From Klebsiella phage ZCKP1, in sequence record MH252123.1: 64,000 bases of DNA; one strand, 5' to 3'. Positions within the stretch are counted from its first letter, which is position 1. Each line of letters begins with the position of its first letter. Under the pieces are notes generated by a model. It saw nothing but the letters and a program-made list of their open reading frames with translations, had not been told where the DNA came from and did no database searches. Position numbers and translations under genes: made by a program. This document shows positions 3,249 to 41,582 of the stretch, in pieces.

Positions 3249-4049
3249 TTATTTGTTTAAATGGTCTTCAACCATTTTGATAAAGCCTTCATCACTGAAG
3301 ACTGTTCCTGCTTTCTCTCGGTAGACAAGCACTCCACGTTCTTCGTAGAGAGTTTGTTCTACAAAATTCAAACCTGGGTTAACTACAACCATCTTAACCC
3401 CAATATTCAGGGCAGGGAAGAGTTCCCAGTTGAAGTTGATTACTTGGTTAGAGCAGCCTACAACGATAACCATATCTTGTGATGTTAGTTGATCTAGTTT
3501 GTGATACATGTCTGTGTAGAGTGGTGCATTCTCACCAAAAAACACCACATTAGGCTTCACATATTTGTAATCGTCTACATCAATAGCTGCGTAACCCACA
3601 TCTTTGATAATTTTGTTATCAACAACAACTTCTGGCAAGAAACCATGAACGTGCAATATTTCTTCTCTATCGATTCCAGCGCGCTCTAATAGATCGTCAA
3701 CGTTAGTAGTGATGTTAATAATCCTTTCTGCACCGTATTTTTCGAACCATTCTCCAATCTGAAGATGTGCTGGATTCGGGTCAACTTTCTCTAATTCCAC
3801 ACGACGTTTATTGTAGAAGTCGTGAGTTTTACGGTAGAGGTTATATCCTTCCACATCTAAACCACCCATAGCATCAGGAATACCCTGTTCTTGCTGATAA
3901 CCGTCACGGAAGTTGAAAATGTCACAGACTTCTGTTAAATCGTATTCATCCCATAATGCCTTTCCAGAATCTGTTTCTGTGCGAAATGTTTGGATTCCGC
4001 TGTCAGCACTTAGTCCCGCACCACTAATAAAATATACACGTCTTGGCAT
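3249..4049 (-). CDS. cobB: Sir2-family NAD-dependent deacylase/ADP-ribosyltransferase (CobB-like sirtuin without Zn-binding Cys module)
   Basis: FISGAGLSADSGIQTFR, TNVDDLLERAG, HVHGFL, VVFFGE and VVGCSNQV align with bacterial CobB sirtuin motifs; no CxxC pairs. Confidence 0.8.
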   Translation of the reverse strand: MPRRVYFISGAGLSADSGIQTFRTETDSGKALWDEYDLTEVCDIFNFRDGYQQEQGIPDAMGGLDVEGYNLYRKTHDFYNKRRVELEKVDPNPAHLQIGEWFEKYGAERIINITTNVDDLLERAGIDREEILHVHGFLPEVVVDNKIIKDVGYAAIDVDDYKYVKPNVVFFGENAPLYTDMYHKLDQLTSQDMVIVVGCSNQVINFNWELFPALNIGVKMVVVNPGLNFVEQTLYEERGVLVYREKAGTVFSDEGFIKMVEDHLNK

Positions 4050-5917: not shown

Positions 5918-6323
5918 TACCCCTCCATTCAAGACAAGCCATAACTTTACGCCAATCACTTTCTGTAAGAAAAATCTCGTTTGCTTTCTTCCACAAATCT
6001 AAATCGTGAAGGGTTGGAATACGATATGTTAGTTCACAGAATCTATGCTCTTCTTCTGTAATATAACCAAAATGCAGAGCCACATCGTGAAACCAACACC
6101 AACCATGCATCTCTCGAACAACATGGTCATGTTGAGACATTATTTTATGCCGTAAACCTAACCAACAAGGAACAGATACTTTAGTAGTCTTTAATCTGTG
6201 ATCAACAGTATTAGAGTATTCAATAATAGCTGTCAGTTTCAATCGTGCTTTTTCTAAATCCTCATGCGTCACTTTGAAATAACTTTCTGAAAGATATCCA
6301 CACATATTAATAACCTCCTTCAA
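5910..6323 (-). CDS. hypothetical protein (137 aa, His/Trp-rich HDHVVREMHGWCWFHD)
   Basis: ORF overlapping both neighbours. Confidence 0.45.
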   Translation of the reverse strand: MKEVINMCGYLSESYFKVTHEDLEKARLKLTAIIEYSNTVDHRLKTTKVSVPCWLGLRHKIMSQHDHVVREMHGWCWFHDVALHFGYITEEEHRFCELTYRIPTLHDLDLWKKANEIFLTESDWRKVMACLEWRGNE

Positions 6324-7248
6324 AAGGCTTTACTACATGTTGATTAGCTTTAAAACGTTCAACATAGTCGTTTTCGCCCATGTTTTCATATAGCTTAGTA
6401 ACAACATAAAAGTTTTCCCAAGCATATTCCCTAAACCAACCACTAGTGATGGATGTGCAGACTTTAGATAAAGCCATTATAAAACTTTGCTTAGGGGTTG
6501 GACCTCCGATCTCTCCACCGAAAGGAATTTGTGAACGTTCCAAAGCCAAAACACACGCTTCTTCATAAACACCTAACAGGCGCACATGTTTTGGTTGAGC
6601 AAAAAACTTTTCTTTGCTGGTCATAACTTCACTTCCATCTTTCATATAAGATTTATATGCCGGAGCATCCATTACCGCGATTGCTTCATGGATAGAATCA
6701 TGATCATAAACATACGGAACCTCATCACCTTTAAAAAAGTCTTTACTTTTTACGTTTAAGTTCGGATGAGAGTAAGTGTATGTTTCTTTCTCACGCAACT
6801 CATAAATACTCTTAAGATTTTCTGGGATCTTTGCGCCCAGTGACCGCATGAAATGAATATCTTTCATAGTTTTAAAGAAGTGAGGACTATCCTTTTTAAA
6901 ACGATGACTCATTTTAAGAAGGTAGAGCACATCTAAAGGAGCAACAACATGTCCAGCGTAAGTTCGACGAACATCATCAGAATCTTCACAGTAACTAATC
7001 AAAGCTTCTGTGCTATCTCCTTGAGAAGCAATATCGTATTCCAAATGTGCACCAGCTATCATTTTGACATGGCCTTTGTTTCCTTTACGTTCTACAAGTT
7101 CAACAAACTCATCTTGAGAGAACATTTTTGATAATTCTTCCCACTCTTGTTCTGTACACAGGTAATCTAAATCTACACAAGGGCGATACAAGTCTTTTCC
7201 CATGTCCATAGCATGAATTTGTAATGCACGGCTACCAATTAACACCAT
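6307..7248 (-). CDS. nucleotidyltransferase-fold (pol-beta superfamily) protein
   Basis: N-terminal LIGSRALQIHAMDMGKDLYRPCVDLDYL matches the G[SG]-x(9-13)-DxD minimal NTase motif; RBS gaggagaaatatt ATG. Confidence 0.45.
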   Translation of the reverse strand: MVLIGSRALQIHAMDMGKDLYRPCVDLDYLCTEQEWEELSKMFSQDEFVELVERKGNKGHVKMIAGAHLEYDIASQGDSTEALISYCEDSDDVRRTYAGHVVAPLDVLYLLKMSHRFKKDSPHFFKTMKDIHFMRSLGAKIPENLKSIYELREKETYTYSHPNLNVKSKDFFKGDEVPYVYDHDSIHEAIAVMDAPAYKSYMKDGSEVMTSKEKFFAQPKHVRLLGVYEEACVLALERSQIPFGGEIGGPTPKQSFIMALSKVCTSITSGWFREYAWENFYVVTKLYENMGENDYVERFKANQHVVKPFEGGY

Positions 7249-7278
7249 AATATTTCTCCTCTATTGGTTGATAGGTTA

Positions 7279-7308
7279 AGTTTATCAAGCTTCCAGATTC
7301 CTGTCAAT
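7279..7308 (-). promoter_or_regulatory. sigma70-like promoter (TTGACA-18-TAAACT) driving the NTase-to-Sir2 operon
   Basis: on the minus strand, TTGACAGgaatctggaagcttgaTAAACT immediately follows the terminator T-run. Confidence 0.4.
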
Positions 7309-7334
7309 AAAAAACCCGCCGAAGCGGGTTATTA
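7309..7334 (-). terminator. terminator hairpin AACCCGCTTCGGCGGGTTTTTT (minus sense)
   Basis: GC stem, CTTCGG loop and T-run when read on the minus strand. Confidence 0.6.
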
Positions 7335-7338
7335 TTTA

Positions 7339-7611
7339 CTAACACATTGAGGAAGAAGAGATCCAAACACCTCTTGTGGTTAAACCATTTTCATCCAACT
7401 CTACACCATAATCTTCACAAATGAAATCAATATAGTGATCTGCGGCTGGCGTTCCTGTAGGGTAATAAGTTTCTCCGTTACCGTAGTCACCTATCCAAGC
7501 TTGTTCCTGAAACTGTTCACAAAGTTCTTCAATCTCCTTACGAAACTTTCTTTGTGCTTGTTCCATCTCTTTAACTTTCTTTTTTATCAGCAGTTCGCCT
7601 TCAGACTCCAC
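7339..7611 (-). CDS. small acidic protein, C-terminal GVWISSSSMC
   Basis: GTG start after AAGGAG; member of the W-x-S-S-S-C tail family. Confidence 0.5.
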   Translation of the reverse strand: MESEGELLIKKKVKEMEQAQRKFRKEIEELCEQFQEQAWIGDYGNGETYYPTGTPAADHYIDFICEDYGVELDENGLTTRGVWISSSSMC

Positions 7612-7620
7612 AATCTCTCC

Positions 7621-7839
7621 TTAACAGCTACTACTGTGCCAAACGCCTTGAGAATTAACGACGAAACCATCATCACCTTCACCATAACAAGAAGAGGATT
7701 GCCAATCTTCAAAACAGATTGCGTCATTTTCTAAACTAAGACCAAAACCAGCATCTTCAGCTTCTTTTGTAAGTTCGTCCACTAAAGCCATAATAGCTTG
7801 GGCTTTTTCAGTTAATTCTTCAACATTACGATCACTCAT
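7621..7839 (-). CDS. small acidic protein with two copies of W-[QH]-S-S-S-C (internal DWQSSSC, terminal GVWHSSSC)
   Basis: internal ATG at 7839 preceded by AGAGGAGAAATACTA; paralogue of 7339 and 8120. Confidence 0.5.
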   Translation of the reverse strand: MSDRNVEELTEKAQAIMALVDELTKEAEDAGFGLSLENDAICFEDWQSSSCYGEGDDGFVVNSQGVWHSSSC

Positions 7840-8147
7840 TAGTATTTCTCCTCTGGTTGGAAAACTGAACGACAAGCCCACATAGAAGCTTCTTTCAACT
7901 TAGTCTTTGCTATTGAAATTTGGTCAAGGCGGGTGGATATATTGGTAGACTCTTCCAAATCTTCACAATCATCCAGTTCAGCCCACAATTCAGACATTAG
8001 AGCATCAAAGATTAATCCTAATCGAACTTCAGCATCTTTAATAGCATTCACTTTACCAATTTTGTCATCGGTATGCGGTTTATAACCTTTGATATCTTCG
8101 ATTCCCACTTTACCTCCTATTAACAACTTAAAGAAGATGGATGCCAA
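7839..8147 (-). CDS. hypothetical protein (102 aa)
   Basis: ORF in a coupled array. Confidence 0.4.
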   Translation of the reverse strand: MASIFFKLLIGGKVGIEDIKGYKPHTDDKIGKVNAIKDAEVRLGLIFDALMSELWAELDDCEDLEESTNISTRLDQISIAKTKLKEASMWACRSVFQPEEKY

Positions 8148-8317
8148 TTTGTTCCAGTATTCTCATTTTCATCTTCTGGATCATAATAACCACCCATCCC
8201 ATATTCAGGGGAGAAACTGAAACCTTCACCAGTCTCGTCTGCTAACTGTTCTGCTTCCGCTAAAGCCTCATAAGCTGCTTTTACGGCTTCTTCTACTGTT
8301 TTAAACTTGGTCGTCAT
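8120..8317 (-). CDS. small acidic protein, C-terminal NWHPSSLSC
   Basis: RBS ggagaggagaaatttt ATG; same C-terminal Trp/Ser/Cys motif. Confidence 0.5.
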   Translation of the reverse strand: MTTKFKTVEEAVKAAYEALAEAEQLADETGEGFSFSPEYGMGGYYDPEDENENTGTNWHPSSLSC

Positions 8318-8591
8318 AAAATTTCTCCTCTCCTAAAGACATGTTGACATGAAATGCGCGGTATGTAAATTCGTTGTCCGTTGTGTTAGAATAAAACTCA
8401 AATTGAACAACACCGTCTTGAGAAGACAGATACATGCCAATTTGAACTGTTCCTTCTGGTACCAGGTAAGCATACTCTGGACGTAGTGTTACATTGTAAA
8501 AATAAAGTTCCCCAACACCCATTTCATCCCAAGCTTCCCAAGCGGTAACGAAGTTACTTTCAAAACTTGTTACTGATCCGAACTCTGCCAT
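8301..8591 (-). CDS. hypothetical protein (96 aa)
   Basis: start overlaps the upstream stop. Confidence 0.45.
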   Translation of the reverse strand: MAEFGSVTSFESNFVTAWEAWDEMGVGELYFYNVTLRPEYAYLVPEGTVQIGMYLSSQDGVVQFEFYSNTTDNEFTYRAFHVNMSLGEEKFYDDQV

Positions 8592-9082
8592 AAAACCTCC
8601 TCAATCTTGTAGTTTGACTCCATCTCCAACACATTTCCACGAACGTCTCTCCGAAGAAAGGCATAAGCTTTATTAGGTATTGTAGACTCATATTTAACCA
8701 TGTCTGGCACAGCAAAAGATACTACTACTCCTGCTGGGCTTCTGTCAAGAGCCTTATTAATATTTCTAAGGATATCGTTAGCCAAGATTTCTGCCAATTC
8801 TCCAAGAACAGTTTCGGTTATATCTTTATATCCCATTAAATATTTGTTGATATCTTTCATCTCTGCATTGTTCAGAGTATAGTCTAAAGGATAAAAATTC
8901 AAAGCGGAGTCACTTTTATGTGTCCACATGAAATGCACCCGATCCGAGCAGAATCGTAACCCTCTACGAAGAATATCTTCTACAACAGGGAGAATTTCTT
9001 TTGTCACATCGTTAACCATGTTGTAATCTAAGATTTCTGCCAAGTTTGTTCTTTGTTCACCACGTTTACGTCTAGGAATCAC
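8570..9082 (-). CDS. hypothetical protein (170 aa) ending ...VLWQSSDQ
   Basis: ORF; C-terminus shares the W-Q-S-S motif with the small-protein family. Confidence 0.5.
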   Translation of the reverse strand: MIPRRKRGEQRTNLAEILDYNMVNDVTKEILPVVEDILRRGLRFCSDRVHFMWTHKSDSALNFYPLDYTLNNAEMKDINKYLMGYKDITETVLGELAEILANDILRNINKALDRSPAGVVVSFAVPDMVKYESTIPNKAYAFLRRDVRGNVLEMESNYKIEEVLWQSSDQ

Positions 9083-9653
9083 TTGTTATCGCCCTCATTA
9101 CCAAAGGTCGTAGAAAATCGTAAATCTCTTGTTTTGTTTTCCCACGAATGTTTAAACAAGGAACATTATTGGCTTTAGCTATCTTCCAAGCCGTAGCTGT
9201 TCCACCTTTTGCATCTCCATGTTTATCAGTATTAGCACAAGCCAACAAGAAACATGATGGAGCAGGATTCTCCAAATCTCTGCCTAACACTTGATGCACA
9301 TTACGTTGGTGCAATTTTCTAGCACCCTGCTTAAGCTTTTCATAAGCTGGGTGAACATCTTTGATCCATTGCACAGAGATAGCATAGTTCATTGTATCTG
9401 GTTTTGCAAGAACAATAACATCACCTGGAATCTGATTACCTTTGAAATTTTCCCAAGGAACATAAATTTCCTTGTTAGTAGGATTTTCAGACTCTTGGAC
9501 ACCTGTTTCAAAAGCAGAATCACTACCCTCTGCCTTACCAGACCGTAATTTAAACCCAAGGTTTGAAAGCCATTTCCCTATGCCTACCATCAAAGCCCAC
9601 TCTTCTTCAGATATGTCCCTACTTCCAACTCCCGTATAGAACAGTTCTGCCAT
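9072..9653 (-). CDS. SLOG/DprA-like Rossmann-fold protein
   Basis: FYTGVGSRDIS, RSGKAEGSDSAFETG and GGTATAWKIAKANNVP resemble the DprA/Smf-LOG family; internal start at 9653 after GAGGTGA. Confidence 0.45.
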   Translation of the reverse strand: MAELFYTGVGSRDISEEEWALMVGIGKWLSNLGFKLRSGKAEGSDSAFETGVQESENPTNKEIYVPWENFKGNQIPGDVIVLAKPDTMNYAISVQWIKDVHPAYEKLKQGARKLHQRNVHQVLGRDLENPAPSCFLLACANTDKHGDAKGGTATAWKIAKANNVPCLNIRGKTKQEIYDFLRPLVMRAITSDS

Positions 9654-9660
9654 AATCACC

Positions 9661-9969
9661 TCAACAAGTAATTTCAAAAGGTGTATAGGGTTCCGTATTT
9701 CTCATGATCCAAGGACTGCTAGGATTGCTCGGATCATAAGGACCAAAAGGTTTTATGGTAGGTTGTGTTTCTTTCTTCTGAATCTCTTCAAAAATACGAC
9801 GAAGTTCAGAATATTCTTGATCCACCATAAGATTCGGTGCATCTGATTCTACAGCTTGCAGGTTATCTTCCTTAAGAACAATCTCACGAACAAGATTAAC
9901 ATCTTCTGTTTCTAAGATAACTTCTTTACGGATATTACCTACACTTTGAATAATTGTAATCTTATACAT
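9661..9969 (-). CDS. hypothetical protein (102 aa)
   Basis: ORF. Confidence 0.45.
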   Translation of the reverse strand: MYKITIIQSVGNIRKEVILETEDVNLVREIVLKEDNLQAVESDAPNLMVDQEYSELRRIFEEIQKKETQPTIKPFGPYDPSNPSSPWIMRNTEPYTPFEITC

Positions 9970-10712
9970 TAATCCTCCTCAAGAGTTGAATAAAATTGAA
10001 GACCACCGTCCATATCGAAATAAGCAAATGTTAAGTTATTATTGAACACAGATCCAGTATCCATATAAACACGATTCGCATTGATAATAGGTGTTTTTAC
10101 ATAAGAGTGTCCATGAAACACATAATCCACACCCATCACAACAGGAAGTTTCATTCCCTCTTTAGCACAGTCTACCATATCTCTGTCCCACATAAGTGCT
10201 TCAGCAAAACGGTTTTCCTGTGTTTTTGTCATCTTCGAAATGTATTCTGGAATATCTGTTACAGGGAGATATTCCAAAGAAGATGGATACCCACCATGAA
10301 TAAACGCAAGTTTCATGCCTCTGTAGTTAACAATGAGAACAACAGGTAAATCTTCTGTCATCATTGCTAAGGCTGTAGCTCCTTCTTCACCACATTCTTC
10401 AAAGACCGTATATCCTCCATTTTGATACCAACACTCGTAGTAGCTACGATCTCCTTCCAGCATACCTTTAATCATCATGTCTTCATGATTGCCACGAATA
10501 GCGTAGCGATTGTGTTTACGAGTAAATTCTAAAACACAACGAAAGTTTTGCTTTCCACGGTCAGTAAGATCTCCTAGAGATACAACCACATCTGTATCTC
10601 GGATACCTAACTTTGCCTTTCCTTTTTCATACAAATTATAACAACCGTGTAGATCTCCAATTATAAAAAGATCTTGATCGCTTTTAACAGTAATTTCTCT
10701 GTGTATGATCAC
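9969..10712 (-). CDS. Ser/Thr protein phosphatase (PPP/lambda-phosphatase/ApaH family metallophosphoesterase)
   Basis: GDLHGC, GDLTDRG and RGNHE signature motifs. Confidence 0.8.
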   Translation of the reverse strand: MIIHREITVKSDQDLFIIGDLHGCYNLYEKGKAKLGIRDTDVVVSLGDLTDRGKQNFRCVLEFTRKHNRYAIRGNHEDMMIKGMLEGDRSYYECWYQNGGYTVFEECGEEGATALAMMTEDLPVVLIVNYRGMKLAFIHGGYPSSLEYLPVTDIPEYISKMTKTQENRFAEALMWDRDMVDCAKEGMKLPVVMGVDYVFHGHSYVKTPIINANRVYMDTGSVFNNNLTFAYFDMDGGLQFYSTLEED

Positions 10713-11048: not shown

Positions 11049-11639
11049 TCAAATTATTAACGAAACCGCATGACTAAATCTTGGTTCAGATATAACCTCT
11101 GCTACAGTCACATATGTATCGTGCAGCCAAAAAGATTCTACTCTACAAACACAAATACCGTTGATAATGAAATCTACACAGGCTTTATTATTTTCGCACA
11201 CTTGTTGACTATAAACAACCCCTAAAGAGTCATAAAGTGATCTCACTGTTGCTACCATTTCATCTGTCTCGTCTTCCTGTGAAACAAAGAAAACGAATAC
11301 AGACAAGTTGTTAGCGAAAGTACTGCTATTCTCTACTTCAACCGACTTACAAGGTAAAAAGGAGTAATATTTACCGTTAGGTATCAATTTCGCCTCAACC
11401 TGGTTAAGTATGCTTTGAGATGGTTTTGTTACATAAAAAAGATTTTCTGTTGGGTTTTCAACATTACTCCTTACTATGCAACGAGTGGGGTTCGAAGGAT
11501 CAAAAACATGATCAAAATCGACACACACAGGTAGGTTAACAACTTTAAACTTTTTGCTAAGAATGCTTACTGCTGTAAAAATCAAACCAGCATTTATTTT
11601 GCCAGTGAAAGTTGAACGCATAACTACTCCTCGGATCAT
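11049..11639 (-). CDS. hypothetical protein (196 aa)
   Basis: ORF. Confidence 0.45.
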   Translation of the reverse strand: MIRGVVMRSTFTGKINAGLIFTAVSILSKKFKVVNLPVCVDFDHVFDPSNPTRCIVRSNVENPTENLFYVTKPSQSILNQVEAKLIPNGKYYSFLPCKSVEVENSSTFANNLSVFVFFVSQEDETDEMVATVRSLYDSLGVVYSQQVCENNKACVDFIINGICVCRVESFWLHDTYVTVAEVISEPRFSHAVSLII

Positions 11640-13282: not shown

Positions 13283-13306
13283 CCCCCGAAGGGGCAGTTT
13301 GTTAAA
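13283..13306 (-). terminator. hairpin GCCCCCGAAGGGGC (terminator-like)
   Basis: GC stem with CGAAG loop. Confidence 0.4.
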
Positions 13307-13994
13307 TAGCGGTTCCTTCGAAATCCGCCACATTTACGAGATTAATATTTTCAGATTTAGAAGTCAAGTTGTTTTCTGCAACAGATTTTTCTTCAGTATC
13401 TGCCTCGTTACCTGCCACGTTACGAGGTTCTTCTTCACCGTAGGGATTACCGAATTTCAAAAGATTGATCAATTCTTCTTTGGAGAAGTTTTCTAAATCA
13501 TCGTCTGTTAATTCAATAATCTCGTCTTGTTCTTCAATAAATGTTTCACCACCAGAAAAAGCATCTCGCTTTTTAGCTACTTCCATAGCCTGTTCTGGTG
13601 TTGCCCCTGCATCAAGAGCAGCTAAAGCAAAGTCTGACCCACTTCCTACCGCATAATATTCTTCATCAATCGGATATGCACGTGTTGGGTTGTTACCTTC
13701 GTGCAGGAAAATACGTCCGTCTGGATGAACAACAAGTGCAATAAACTCTTCATCTTCTTTATCTGGATCAGAGTGAATCATCAAACCAGGGACAGCATCA
13801 CGTGCTGCTTCGCACTGTAGATTTTGTTCAAACCATTGAAAGAAAGAAAGCACGGAGGTCAGACGACCAGCACCACCTACAAGGTAATCTCCAATTTTTC
13901 GGACCTTTTTGAAATTAATAGAATCTACACGTCCACCAAAAGTTACCTTACCGTCACTCAAAATCTTATTTTTGGTTGCAATAATTGTCGTCAC
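13302..13994 (-). CDS. hslV: HslV (ClpQ)-like N-terminal-threonine peptidase with ~60-aa acidic C-terminal extension
   Basis: MTTIIATKN start with Thr nucleophile; KKVRKIGD, LVGGAGRLTSVLSFFQWFE and AVGSGSDFALAALDAG align with HslV. Confidence 0.75.
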   Translation of the reverse strand: MTTIIATKNKILSDGKVTFGGRVDSINFKKVRKIGDYLVGGAGRLTSVLSFFQWFEQNLQCEAARDAVPGLMIHSDPDKEDEEFIALVVHPDGRIFLHEGNNPTRAYPIDEEYYAVGSGSDFALAALDAGATPEQAMEVAKKRDAFSGGETFIEEQDEIIELTDDDLENFSKEELINLLKFGNPYGEEEPRNVAGNEADTEEKSVAENNLTSKSENINLVNVADFEGTAI

Positions 13995-38742: not shown

Positions 38743-38817
38743 GGCCCTGTAGCTCAATGGGAGAGCTGTCGGCTCATAACCGATAGGTAGCTGGATCGAA
38801 ACCAGCCAGGGCCACCA
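38743..38817 (+). tRNA. tRNA-Met/Ile2 (anticodon CAT), CCA encoded
   Basis: cloverleaf folded by eye: acceptor GGCCCTG/CAGGGCC, anticodon loop CTCATAA, T-loop GGATCGAAACC. Confidence 0.75.
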
Positions 38818-38819
38818 AC

Positions 38820-38894
38820 GTCTTTATGGTGTAATGGATAGCACAGGAGTCTTCTAAACTCTTAGTCAAGGTTCGATTCCTTGTAAAGACACCA
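38820..38894 (+). tRNA. tRNA-Arg (anticodon TCT), CCA encoded
   Basis: acceptor GTCTTTA/TAAAGAC, loop CTTCTAA, T-arm CAAGGTTCGATTCCTTG. Confidence 0.7.
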
Positions 38895-39090
38895 GAACAT
38901 TTTAACATGAATTAGCTCAAGTGATTTGAACACACTACTGATCATGGTGGTAGAGAATGAGGCAAGTATGTCAGACATTATAAACAAAGGCCACGGTTAT
39001 ATTAGAAGACATAAATGCTCGAAGAGCACCGTTCGTGGAGAACGGGGGTTGGTGGAGTCACCATTCATGGTAAAATGTTTTAAAAAACTA

Positions 39091-39120
39091 TTGACAACTA
39101 ACATTATTTTATGTTAGATT
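39091..39120 (+). promoter_or_regulatory. sigma70 promoter (ctaTTGACAa-18-TAGATT) ahead of the second tRNA block
   Basis: consensus -35 with the extended upstream context. Confidence 0.45.
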
Positions 39121-39128
39121 ATAAGTAT

Positions 39129-39219
39129 GGAAGGGCAAATCGACGTGGCGACGAAAACGGTCTTGAAAACCGCCGAGCTTGAAAGAGCCTTGGGAGTTCG
39201 ACTCTCCCTCCTTCCGCCA
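39129..39219 (+). tRNA. tRNA-Ser (anticodon TGA), long variable arm, CCA encoded
   Basis: acceptor GGAAGGG/TCCTTCC, loop CTTGAAA, variable-arm hairpin, T-arm GGGAGTTCGACTCTCCC. Confidence 0.7.
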
Positions 39220-39223
39220 GATT

Positions 39224-39309
39224 GGTAGATTGGTGAAATGGTAGCCACGACAGTTTGCTAAACTGTAGTCGGAAACGGCGTGTAGGTTCGAGTCCTACAT
39301 CTACCGCCA
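39224..39309 (+). tRNA. tRNA-Ser (anticodon GCT), long variable arm, CCA encoded
   Basis: acceptor GGTAGAT/ATCTACC, stem ACAGT/ACTGT, loop TTGCTAA, T-arm GTAGGTTCGAGTCCTAC. Confidence 0.75.
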
Positions 39310-39439
39310 AGTTCTTTTTAATATAGCTTACTTTAGCAGAGTAAATCTTCGGCAAGTGGCGGTAACCACTTTACCGATAACTCATAGTTAGTGGTGTGAA
39401 CACTGGCTATTTTAAAAAGAATTTAAATATTAGTATTTA

Positions 39440-39527
39440 GGTGAGTTAATTCCGTAGGGGTAGCGGGGCAGACTGTAAATCTGTTATCATTGCGATTCGG
39501 GTGGTTCGACTCCATCACTCACCACCA
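39440..39527 (+). tRNA. tRNA-Tyr (anticodon GTA), long variable arm, CCA encoded
   Basis: GCAGACTGTAAATCTGT anticodon arm identical in type to bacterial tRNA-Tyr; acceptor GGTGAGT/ACTCACC. Confidence 0.7.
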
Positions 39528-39533
39528 AATTAA

Positions 39534-39619
39534 GATGAGTTGGCTGAATGGTTTAAGCGGCGGACTGTTAATCCGTGTTCGAAAGAACGATATAGGTTCA
39601 AATCCTATACTCATCGCCA
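39534..39619 (+). tRNA. atypical tRNA with Asn anticodon arm (GTT) plus 15-nt variable-arm hairpin, CCA encoded
   Basis: anticodon arm GCGGACTGTTAATCCGT equals the E. coli tRNA-Asn arm; variable region GTTCGAAAGAACGAT forms GTTC/GAAC hairpin; discriminator G. Confidence 0.55.
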
Positions 39620-39626
39620 GAATTAT

Positions 39627-39704
39627 GGACTTGTAGAGTTAAGGTAAACCCCCCAGTCGCCAAGAGGCTTCTGAAATTGCAGGTATCGAATCCTGCCGAG
39701 TCCC
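39627..39704 (+). ncRNA. degenerate tRNA-like element (good acceptor and T-arm, no canonical anticodon arm)
   Basis: acceptor GGACTTG/CGAGTCC and GCAGG-TATCGAAT-CCTGC T-arm with 8-nt loop; middle region forms CAGtcGCCaagaGGCttCTG hairpin instead of an anticodon arm; no CCA. Confidence 0.35.
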
Positions 39705-39710
39705 AGCTTT

Positions 39711-39785
39711 GCTCCTATAGTATAATGGCTATTACAACGGTTTTGTAATCCGTGGATCTCTGTTCGATTCAGAGTGGGAGCACCA
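39711..39785 (+). tRNA. tRNA-Thr (anticodon TGT), CCA encoded
   Basis: acceptor GCTCCTA/TGGGAGC, loop TTTGTAA, T-arm CTCTGTTCGATTCAGAG. Confidence 0.65.
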
Positions 39786-39964
39786 ACACAACATTAAGGG
39801 CACTGTGATTGATCGTCGTATCCTGTGCACAAGGTCTGTTCGAAAGACAGTGTTCTTAGTATTGTGTTGATCACAAAAAGAGTCACCTGAAACTTGACCG
39901 GAGTAGGGTTGGATGGGGCAAAAGAAGAAGCGGCTCTCCCATCGACAGCAACGAAGAATAATAT

Positions 39965-39993
39965 TTGACTTTGGTTTTGTATTATTTTAAGTT
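39965..39993 (+). promoter_or_regulatory. sigma70 promoter (TTGACT-17-TAAGTT) upstream of higA-like gene
   Basis: good -35/-10 hexamers with 17-nt spacer. Confidence 0.4.
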
Positions 39994-40140
39994 AGCTTAC
40001 CGAACGTAGGGCTAGTCACCCAACGGGATACTCGTCACTGTCCCACTCAAAGAAAAGAAGAACCAAACTGTTAACGTTAAGAAAAAATTACCCTTAACTA
40101 ATCCATTTTATCACAAATGGATTTCATATGTCAATATGTT

Positions 40141-40160
40141 TGCGCGTTGCACAGCGCGCA
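40141..40160 (+). promoter_or_regulatory. palindromic operator-like site TGCGCG-ttgcacag-CGCGCA immediately upstream of higA RBS
   Basis: perfect 6-bp inverted repeat 25 nt before the start codon. Confidence 0.45.
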
Positions 40161-40184
40161 AAATCAGAGTATTTAGGAGGTTAC

Positions 40185-40526
40185 ATGGTCACATTGCACA
40201 AACCTATGCACCCCGGCGAGTTTATCCGCGAAGTATATTTAGAGCCGTTAGAGCTTCAAATAGGAACGTTTGCAGAAAAGCTTGGTGTTGATACATCAAC
40301 CGTTAGCCGGTTAGTAAACCAAAAAGCTGACCTTTCTTATGAAATGGCATTACGCCTATCAAAAGCCTTAGGGCGTTCTGCTGACTCTTGGATGAAAATG
40401 CAAATAGCATATGGTTTATATCGTGCTCAAGATAAAGTAAATCTTGAAGAAGTTGAGGTGGTTTACTGCCCACGGAACTTGGATGCTCCTGAAAAACAGG
40501 TCCATGAATTTTATGAAAATATCTAA
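40185..40526 (+). CDS. higA: HigA-family antitoxin-like XRE helix-turn-helix protein (no cognate toxin ORF found)
   Basis: MHPGEFIREVYLEPL...TFAEKLGVDTSTVSRLVNQKADLSYEMALRLSKALGRSADSWMKMQ matches the HigA/VapI antidote family; RBS AGGAGG-5nt-ATG. Confidence 0.7.
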   Translation: MVTLHKPMHPGEFIREVYLEPLELQIGTFAEKLGVDTSTVSRLVNQKADLSYEMALRLSKALGRSADSWMKMQIAYGLYRAQDKVNLEEVEVVYCPRNLDAPEKQVHEFYENI

Positions 40527-40702
40527 AAACGATATTTCATTTAGGTAAAGAAAAGCTACTAACCATAGGGGCTTTTTGTCTCTACACCTGTGTATTTATG
40601 TGAAGACCTAAGGCAGCATCGTTATTCCTGAAGATGCTTAAACAGCGGTCTTGTACACCCTGTTACCACGGTTCAGAAGTTCCCCAACTTACTGAACATT
40701 CG

Positions 40703-40733
40703 AAAAACCACCCCCCAGGTGGTTTTTCGTTTC
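40703..40733 (+). terminator. rho-independent terminator AAAAACCACCCCCCAGGTGGTTTTTCGTTT
   Basis: CCACC/GGTGG stem followed by a T-run. Confidence 0.65.
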
Positions 40734-40771
40734 AGGATTAAAGATACTCTGCGTCCCACTCAATAAAACTA

Positions 40772-40801
40772 TTGACAACCAATAGTAAAATGTAGTATAG
40801 T
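40772..40801 (+). promoter_or_regulatory. sigma70 promoter (ctaTTGACAa-18-TATAGT) ahead of the third tRNA block
   Basis: consensus -35 with the extended upstream context. Confidence 0.5.
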
Positions 40802-40812
40802 AAAGATATAGG

Positions 40813-40886
40813 GCGTTCTTGGTGTAGCGGTAGCATTCCGTCCTTCCAAGTCGGCGGCACGAGTTCGATCCTCGTAGAACGCTCCA
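40813..40886 (+). tRNA. tRNA-Gly (anticodon TCC), CCA encoded
   Basis: acceptor GCGTTCT/AGAACGC, loop CTTCCAA, T-arm ACGAGTTCGATCCTCGT. Confidence 0.65.
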
Positions 40887-40984
40887 AATTATTTAATAAA
40901 GGGTTGCCAGAAAACTTTCTCTTTTACTCATGGTTTTCTCCTTCTCTCACACCTCTTCTGGTTGCCCTTCATTAAATGATTTAT

Positions 40985-41060
40985 TGGTTTGTAGTGTAGT
41001 CAGGTAGCACACGACACTTTGACTGTCGTAGGTTTGGTTCAAATCCAGACAGACCAGCCA
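40985..41060 (+). tRNA. tRNA-Gln (anticodon TTG), CCA encoded
   Basis: acceptor TGGTTTG/CAGACCA, stem CGACA/TGTCG, loop CTTTGAC, T-arm TTTGGTTCAAATCCAGA. Confidence 0.7.
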
Positions 41061-41153
41061 TATAACAAAGGTGAGTCACTACCTCAAGTGTGAAGTTAAA
41101 AAACGAGGAGCCGCCGAACACTTTCTTTTGCGGTGTACCTTTAGAATGTTATG

Positions 41154-41230
41154 ACGGAATTTAGCTCAGTTTGGTAGAGTGTACGCTTTGGGAGCGTATT
41201 GTCGCAGGTTCGAATCCTGCAATTCCGACC
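41154..41230 (+). tRNA. tRNA-Pro (anticodon TGG), CCA encoded
   Basis: acceptor CGGAATT/AATTCCG, D-arm GCTCAGTTTGGTAGAGT, loop TTTGGGA, T-arm GCAGGTTCGAATCCTGC. Confidence 0.75.
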
Positions 41231-41236
41231 AATTAA

Positions 41237-41310
41237 ATGTTTCGTAGTTCAATGGTAGAACCCACGACTGATAATCGTGAGATACAAGTTCGATTCTTGT
41301 CGAAACAACC
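41237..41310 (+). tRNA. tRNA-Ile (anticodon GAT), CCA encoded
   Basis: acceptor TGTTTCG/CGAAACA, stem CACGA/TCGTG, loop CTGATAA, T-arm ACAAGTTCGATTCTTGT. Confidence 0.75.
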
Positions 41311-41312
41311 AG

Positions 41313-41385
41313 TTTCCCGTTAGACTTACAGGATAAGAGTTCCACAGCTTATTGTGATGCTGGTTCGAATCCAGCACGGGATACC
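41313..41385 (+). ncRNA. tRNA-like element / possible tRNA pseudogene (canonical T-arm GCTGGTTCGAATCCAGC and acceptor, body does not fold canonically)
   Basis: acceptor TTCCCGT/ACGGGAT with a T-T first pair; no acceptable 5-bp anticodon stem found by eye; ends CCT. Confidence 0.3.
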
Positions 41386-41388
41386 TAA

Positions 41389-41467
41389 TAGCGGGATAGA
41401 GGAGTCTGGTCGTCCTCGCCAGTTTCATATGCTGGAGATCATCGGTTCAAATCCGATTCCCGCCTCC
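41389..41467 (+). tRNA. tRNA-Met (anticodon CAT) with A1-C72 mismatch (initiator-like feature), CCA encoded
   Basis: acceptor AGCGGGA/TCCCGCC with A-C at 1:72, stem CCAGT/GCTGG, loop TTCATAT, T-arm ATCGGTTCAAATCCGAT. Confidence 0.6.
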
Positions 41468-41582
41468 AAATATCGCTTGCCAGCGGTATCTTTGAAGACC
41501 TTGCCTGGTTCCTTCTAAGATGGAGGGGTGCGACTCCTTAACGCACAATTATAATAAAGCATTTCAACTTAACAGTATTTAT

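Follow-up and report, generated by a model that had tools for sequence, protein, structure and literature searches.

What is the role of a C-terminal tail built from Trp, Ser-Ser and a final Cys when it recurs on several small proteins of one phage, and with what does it interact? The question is raised by a gene array in Klebsiella phage ZCKP1 (MH252123.1), of which we analyzed a 64,000-nucleotide (nt) stretch, hereafter the window. A prediction made from the letters alone (hereafter the original prediction) drew attention to the tail and to a nearby protease, and overlooked a nucleotidyltransferase gene immediately downstream that co-occurs with the tail genes almost universally. The tail observation is stronger than was first stated, and its reading shifts from a protease or degron to this adjacent enzyme. 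Sequence comparisons show that the tail genes and the enzyme gene make up a conserved, phage-only, two-component accessory module, in which one to five tandem tail genes are normally followed directly by a gene for a MenT/AbiEii/ANT-like enzyme.

All genes discussed here lie on the minus strand, the tRNA genes excepted. Gene 1 (7339..7611; GTG start, 90 amino acids (aa) in the list of open reading frames (ORFs)) ends in GVWISSSSMC, and direct translation places its motif W-I-S-S-S-S-M-C at 7342..7365, with Cys as the last codon before TAG. Gene 2 (7621..7839; 72 aa from an ATG at 7839, the extent and start annotated in relatives) carries two motif copies, an internal W-Q-S-S-S-C (DWQSSSC; 7687..7704) and a terminal W-H-S-S-S-C (GVWHSSSC; 7624..7641), both read by direct translation, and gene 3 (8120..8317; 65 aa) ends in EYGMGGYYDP...NWHPSSLSC, with its tail at 8123-8146. 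A strong Shine-Dalgarno sequence precedes each gene. The ends WISSSSMC, WHSSSC and WHPSSLSC, each followed by a stop codon, all fit the pattern W-x-[SAP]-S-S-(0-2 residues)-Cys-stop, and each ORF independently matches PHROG 899, an uncharacterised phage protein family (“unknown function”), with E = 5.1e-14 (gene 1), 6.7e-6 (gene 2) and 1.4e-13 (gene 3). These alignments reach profile positions 218-221 of 221, that is, the C-terminal end. The proposed family of paralogues thus stands for these three ORFs and falls for the fourth, a 170-aa ORF at 8570-9082 ending in LWQSSDQ, which we rejected as a degenerate member (family hidden Markov model (HMM) E = 3.8; PHROG 8569; orthologues without a W-x-S-S end).

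Across all six-frame ORFs of the window, W.[SAP]SS occurs five times, four of them within the three tail genes, and the motif is far beyond chance there. Because Ser is encoded by TCT, TCC or TCA in one tail copy and by AGT or AGC in another (the latter in the terminal motif of gene 2), conservation is at the protein level; translation confirmed this codon argument of the original prediction, and its description of the proteins as small and acidic also holds (isoelectric point (pI) 4.0-4.4). The AlphaFold2 (AF2) model of the gene 1 product (predicted local distance difference test (pLDDT) 94.8) consists of an N-terminal helix spanning residues 4-34 (31 residues), a beta-hairpin with GDYGNGETYYP and a short helix, with the tail lying in a last strand (82-85) and turn (86-89). 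Over bases 7000-9400 the window shares 98-99% identity with E. coli myophages of the phAPEC8 type (Phapecoctavirus, Stephanstirmvirinae), in whose records the genes under this match are labelled “hypothetical,” the single exception being one “DprA-like” name.

Far beyond these close relatives, the tail persists while the rest of the protein varies. Word-indexed searches returned 80 relatives of the tail proteins, and an exhaustive profile search returned 272 representatives at 50% identity (E <= 0.001). By tblastn, the family is present in 438 of about 50,700 sequenced phage records, with Escherichia (253), Aeromonas (42), Enterobacter (34), Klebsiella (32) and Shigella (18) as hosts; these phages include Mosigvirus (with RB69), other T4-like phages of Escherichia, Aeromonas, Enterobacter and Klebsiella, and phAPEC8-like phages. 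All copies of the module seen, tail genes and enzyme genes alike, are labelled “hypothetical protein,” save a few named “putative nucleotidyltransferase.” In T4-like, phAPEC8-like, Otagovirus-like and jumbo phages, conservation within the family is highest in the tail. The original prediction would have lost its footing had orthologues lacked the motif, and here the result is decisive: among 218 family proteins inspected, the final residue is exactly Cys in 208, the C-terminus reads W-x-[SAP..]-S-[ST]-x-x-C in 201, and W-x-[SAP]-S-S-(0-2 residues)-Cys-stop fits 202. Within the 201 tails of standard spacing, where Trp(-7) and Cys(0) are set by the selecting pattern itself, Ser(-4) is invariant, Ser(-3) is found in 199 and position -5 is Ser, Ala or Pro save once; outside the tail residues, sequence drifts. 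Two or three copies of W-x-[SAP]-S occur in 47 of the 218 proteins, as in P0148 (WDSSTAIC...WNSSTMEC...WKSSSDDC).

A second conserved element, Y-G-x-G-G-T-Y-Y-P, belongs to a shared C-terminal unit comprising a helix, a beta-strand or hairpin (often with YGMGGTYYP) and a last strand and turn, G-x-W-x-S-S-S-x-x-Cys-COOH. The N-terminal bodies that carry this same tail are highly variable (65 to about 200 aa), the family has a median pI of 4.4, and conserved basic residues are absent. Distinct paralogue types are maintained across distant phages, and tails persist on proteins whose bodies go undetected by the family HMM. For the long forms of 146-170 aa, similarity to the core family is limited to the helix-strand unit (hhalign probability 43%), and membership rests mainly on the tail and synteny. 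Two long repeat proteins, P0093 and P0164, with seven to eight partial matches to profile positions 23-67, were discarded as false positives of the family profile; P0164 has YGSxDGQFxxPxG, resembling NHL-type repeats, and a family HMM would need care to exclude proteins of this type. In RB69, ORF139c/138c, ORF137c and ORF136c end in the tail, and ORF134c is a homologue of the DUF7275 enzyme described below (E = 1e-76). ORF139c and ORF138c (L002, 4995-5301) are one tail gene split by a frameshift, with the tail WVSSPALC; the split may reflect a pseudogene, or a sequencing or annotation artefact.

Could the tail be a degron, delivering its bearers to a protease such as the phage's own HslV-like peptidase, as was originally suggested? 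The motif is indeed C-terminal, and an HslV-family peptidase gene (13302-13994) lies about 5.7 kb from the tail genes. The two are distributed differently, however: the peptidase occurs in 232 phage records (Escherichia 107, Vibrio 36, Caulobacter 28) vs. 438 for the tail family, its E. coli phage records belong to the phAPEC8 group, and Enterobacter and Shigella, where the tail family is common, are not among the genera listed for it. No genomic link of the tail family to any protease was found. In addition, the tail is predicted to be folded, it occurs in internal copies, and four of its residues are fixed in at least about 95% of family members, from phages of many different hosts, which is not expected of a degron. 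We therefore regard this explanation as very improbable.

A different partner is indicated by gene order. With the enzyme as query, we fetched 80 IMG/VR loci (41-78% identity), on contigs that run from fragments of 8 kb up to genomes of 447 kb. A strict regular expression for the tail matched 146 of 2325 same-strand upstream ORFs, none of 2057 downstream ORFs and 4 of 6260 on the opposite strand. At least one tail ORF by this expression is present in 64 of the 80 loci (up to five per locus, at a median of 800 nt from the enzyme gene). The family HMM has a match in 57 of the 80, and some of the tail genes that it detects lie 1-48 nt from the enzyme gene while some overlap it; a looser tail pattern, for which there was no separate control, adds 14 loci to these 57, and in another two the tails are variant. 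Other window genes recur in just 3-20 of these loci, so the synteny is specific to the tail-enzyme pair. It holds in the reverse direction as well: all six distant small tail proteins that we looked up adjoin a DUF7275 gene, the first two lying one or two genes upstream of a DUF7277+DUF7275 gene. Acinetobacter phage Berthold and Pseudomonas phage PN09 have two to five tail ORFs upstream of the enzyme gene. Phage records per genus (tail vs. enzyme) likewise run in parallel: Escherichia 253 vs. 260, Enterobacter 34 vs. 36, Klebsiella 32 vs. 33 and Shigella 18 vs. 18. These patterns amount to near-obligate synteny of tail genes and enzyme.

In the window, the enzyme gene (DUF7277+DUF7275, 313 aa; 6307..7248) starts 91 nt downstream of the 90-aa gene. 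The head of its product is a nucleotidyltransferase of the DNA polymerase beta (Pol-beta) type, in which G5-S6, D26-x-D28 and E70 are invariant in 30 homologues; also common to these homologues are K112, H115, H123, H161, H183-D184, H187, E229-E230, E237-R238 and K262-x-C264-TSITSG. The C-terminal part is an extra conserved helical domain. Structural neighbours of the AF2 model (pLDDT 91.5) are MenT1 (score 11.9), TglT/MenT3 (10.3), ANT(2'') (9.9), Megavirus poly(A) polymerase (9.5), MenT4 (8.8) and LnuA (8.8), and the best matches cover just about 110-146 residues, the unmatched part presumably being the C-terminal helical domain. The enzyme shows the MenT/AbiEii fold with the catalytic G[ST]...DxD and Lys motif. 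In 30 members of its family, however, Pfam DUF1814 (AbiEii) had no match at E <= 5, where only DUF7275, DUF7277 and scattered weak matches appeared. It is present in 733 of the sequenced phage records, and among 185,579 bacterial and archaeal species genomes it is found in only five contigs of metagenome-assembled genomes (MAGs). A literature search returned nothing relevant on DUF7275, DUF7277, the PHROG identifiers, the RB69 ORF names, phAPEC8 anti-defence or phage MenT-like enzymes.

We tentatively prefer the reading in which the tail is a shared acceptor or docking site, with the enzyme transferring a nucleotidyl or phosphoryl group to Ser-Ser. Specifically, the invariant Ser hydroxyls would receive the nucleotidyl (or phosphoryl) group, while Trp and the thiol and carboxylate of the terminal Cys would position the tail in a metal-containing active site; a number of different early effectors would in this way be modified alike and might act in host takeover or counter-defence, a role we propose because the genomic context is early, accessory and rich in anti-defence genes. 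An acceptor is suggested because the invariant tail residues are nucleophiles rather than typical interface residues, because the motif is repeated within some proteins (the 47 noted above), because very different N-terminal bodies carry the same tail and several paralogue types are kept across distant phages, and because tail and enzyme are syntenic in both directions and specifically so. MenA3, a related antitoxin of the same superfamily, offers a further reason, since it phosphorylates a Ser of its partner (Ser78 of MenT3; PMC10435456). The enzyme retains the catalytic G-S...D-x-D...E, and its structural neighbours also argue for an acceptor, as they modify hydroxyl groups by transfer of nucleoside monophosphates: MenT to the tRNA 3'-OH, ANT(2'') and LnuA to hydroxyls of antibiotics. 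Given the synteny, a docking or modification motif was the most plausible of the options in the original prediction, which did not name the nucleotidyltransferase as the partner.

Protein-modifying enzymes of the Pol-beta fold are known: MntA acts on HepT (poly-AMPylation of Tyr), GlnD on PII (uridylylation of Tyr), and CitX and MdcG on acyl carrier proteins (ACPs), to which they attach a Ser-linked prosthetic group. In each of these, as in the phage module, a nucleotidyltransferase-fold enzyme is genetically paired with a small partner bearing an invariant hydroxyl residue, and the tail proteins further resemble acyl carrier proteins in being small, acidic and largely helical. The phage module differs from MntA-HepT, GlnD-PII and CitX-ACP in that the sequences are unrelated, Ser-Ser within a C-terminal Trp/Cys motif would be the acceptor, and several partners would share one enzyme.

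The nearest known kind of system is a nucleotidyltransferase with a small upstream partner, as in MenAT1 and AbiE, and from this likeness comes a close rival to the acceptor reading, possible though somewhat unlikely: that the tail proteins are antitoxin-like inhibitors that bind and block the nucleotidyltransferase as MenA1 blocks MenT1. The tail might then plug the active site as a pseudo-substrate, its thiol and carboxylate chelating the catalytic metals, and the enzyme might be a phage weapon (e.g., against host tRNA 3' ends) timed by its inhibitors. Both MenA1-MenT1 and AbiEi-AbiEii share with the phage module the Pol-beta catalytic motif and a small, long-helix protein encoded upstream on the same strand. 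The 68-aa MenA1 has a single long helix, is usually encoded upstream of menT1 and blocks the active sites of the toxin (PMC10435456); comparably, the phage proteins are acidic, have a 31-residue N-terminal helix (gene 1), lie upstream with strict polarity and in several cases have genes that overlap the enzyme gene or stand 1-48 nt from it. In MenA1, though, the helix is enough, and the disordered C-terminus can be dispensed with (PMC10435456), whereas the conserved element of the phage proteins is Ser-Ser/Cys rather than a helix. MenA1 has no W-x-S-S-S-x-x-Cys end, and the tail proteins resemble it in neither sequence nor fold; they show no homology to known antitoxins of the MenA1 or AbiEi/MenA3 type. 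Phages also keep two to five divergent paralogues over long distances where one antitoxin would suffice. As for the enzyme, it is acidic (pI 5.7), which sits poorly with a broad nucleic-acid-binding surface; it has an extra conserved C-terminal helical domain; and its module is phage-only, including many known lytic types, with the five MAG contigs as the only bacterial or archaeal occurrences, unlike toxin-antitoxin systems. Membership in the MenAT/AbiE group thus fails on three counts, namely the unmatched DUF1814, a partner (one to five divergent paralogues) without antitoxin homology and the lack of a bacterial distribution.

Several observations nevertheless count against an acceptor tail. 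An order in which a small upstream gene precedes an enzyme gene is just as characteristic of antitoxin-toxin pairs. In the AF2 model of the gene 1 protein, the tail is part of a folded strand and turn (pLDDT about 89) and not a flexible tag. In the window, the tail genes and the enzyme gene are separated by a predicted terminator, a GC hairpin with a T run (7313..7330; a sequence match) that closes the tail-gene transcription unit, and by a sigma-70-like promoter (7279..7307; TTGACA, 17 nt, TG-n-TAAACT; a consensus match only) that precedes the nucleotidyltransferase gene. About 6-9 of the 80 enzyme loci have no tail gene within 6 kb. Finally, truncated DUF7275 relatives in Gordonia phages and KVP40 lack nearby tail genes; these two sequences are also without H123, Y157/Y159/H161 and C264, which is suggestive of a tie between those residues and tail association.

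If the acceptor reading were extended to a previously undescribed modification of ribosomally made proteins, installed by the enzyme on a shared C-terminal tag, the system would be truly new; we consider this quite improbable. The enzyme could O-nucleotidylylate Ser-Ser to give protein-nucleotide conjugates or primers, or nucleotidylylation could activate Ser for elimination, upon which the terminal Cys would close a lanthionine-type ring; H123, H161 and C264, found in tail-associated enzymes only, might hold the tail Cys via a metal ion. Cores of lanthipeptides and aminovinyl-cysteine peptides have Ser or Thr a few residues before Cys, in some cases with an obligatory C-terminal Cys. The tail Ser residues at -5, -4 and -3 and the C-terminal Cys fit the spacing of such rings, a necessary and not a sufficient likeness, and several precursors could share one enzyme; in contrast to lanthipeptides, the motif sits on a folded protein of 65-200 aa rather than on a leader-core peptide, and the linked enzyme is a nucleotidyltransferase. 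A core resembling ribosomally synthesized and post-translationally modified peptides (RiPPs), or a lipidation motif, had been among the original suggestions, and neither found support in the surroundings: Pfam scans of 18 neighbouring ORFs revealed no LanB, LanM, LanKC, LanL, LanC, LanD-type or other RiPP maturase, and no lipidation enzyme was found among the neighbouring ORFs. Should the proposal be true, one phage enzyme would arm a whole set of diverse early effectors. No fusions of the tail domain with the enzyme were seen in the longer homologues inspected.

A further alternative is that the tail proteins act independently, as stand-alone anti-defence or host-takeover proteins whose Trp/Ser/Cys end binds a host target or a metal ion, with the enzyme either in the same pathway without touching them or a fellow traveller in a mobile cassette. 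Counter-defence genes are indeed plentiful in the accessory early region that holds the array. Between genes 2 and 3, which with gene 1 had been described as adjacent, is nested an Acb2/Tad1-hairpin-domain gene (7839-8108; PF24729, E = 1.9e-19; PHROG 717), likely a cyclic-nucleotide sponge judging by this domain match, and the module is flanked by genes of the Sir2 family (3249-4049), a DprA-like protein (PHROG 768; 9072-9677) and a calcineurin-like/NinI-type phosphoesterase (9969-10712). The Acb2/Tad1-like gene is itself an independent insertion, since its homologue lies ~6 kb from the enzyme in contigs of T4-like size. Being small and acidic, the tail proteins also resemble many phage inhibitors, and in the window the predicted terminator and promoter stand between their genes and the enzyme gene. 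On the other side, their synteny with the enzyme survives turnover of the neighbours across T4-like, phAPEC8-like, Otagovirus-like and jumbo phages, its polarity is near-absolute and the association holds in both directions; we judge independence unlikely.

One version of independent action, a sponge role (as for Sequestin, Lockin or Acb2-like proteins), was examined and set aside. Phage sponges (Acb2, Tad1, Tad2, Sequestin, Lockin) are likewise small early phage proteins encoded in the same kind of accessory region. The three tail proteins have no Pfam match at E <= 0.1, and so none to PF24729, PF11195 or PF21825 (the last being Sequestin); Lockin, for its part, consists mainly of beta-sheet and is not present in the complete phage genomes of INPHARED. 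Moreover, known cyclic-nucleotide sponges use positively charged pockets (10.1101/2025.07.12.664507), whereas the tail family is acidic (pI about 4.4), without a conserved basic residue.

The module is common—it is found in the model phage RB69, many T4-like phages, phAPEC8-like phages used in therapy studies and jumbo phages—and its near-invariant nucleophilic motif (Trp, Ser-Ser, terminal Cys), carried by divergent proteins and tied to a MenT-like enzyme, gives the module a concrete and testable entry point. It should prove to be either a toxin-inhibitor pair carried by phages, with a defence-type enzyme at its core, or a new kind of protein modification that tags several early effectors. 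Either outcome would reveal a new mechanism in phage host takeover or counter-defence, and two Pfam domains of unknown function, along with one large PHROG, would gain a role.

Some further features of the enzyme loci deserve record. One enzyme clade (L010-L012 and L019, about 53% identity) keeps the catalytic and “tail-associated” residues, and no tail ORF was found within 6 kb of it. A distant phage contig (L003) has a Pfam Acb5 (PF26761) gene (11235-11483) ~2.5 kb downstream of the enzyme, which adds to the anti-defence character of the regions holding the module. The calcineurin-like/NinI-type phosphoesterase is also near the enzyme in 15 of the 80 loci. Linkage of the enzyme to tRNA genes was considered and rejected as a general feature, being seen mainly in contigs of T4-like size (about 165-175 kb); in the window, the cluster of ten tRNA genes (38743-41468, plus strand; Met twice, Arg, Ser, Asn, Thr, Gly, Gln, Pro and Ile) is 30 kb away. 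RNA ligase and phosphoesterase genes lie about 25 kb from the enzyme in the window, and in one lineage (L096/L097, 7259-8318) genes for HAD_PNKP and a T4-type RNA ligase 1 (tRNA repair) lie ~2 kb downstream of it. In one metagenomic lineage (L098, 1-5521) the order is reversed, the enzyme gene preceding three tail genes; this block is followed by genes for Cpn10, an NMNAT-like+NUDIX protein, a 2OG-Fe oxygenase and nicotinamide adenine dinucleotide (NAD) synthase, an arrangement that resembles an NAD-salvage cluster.

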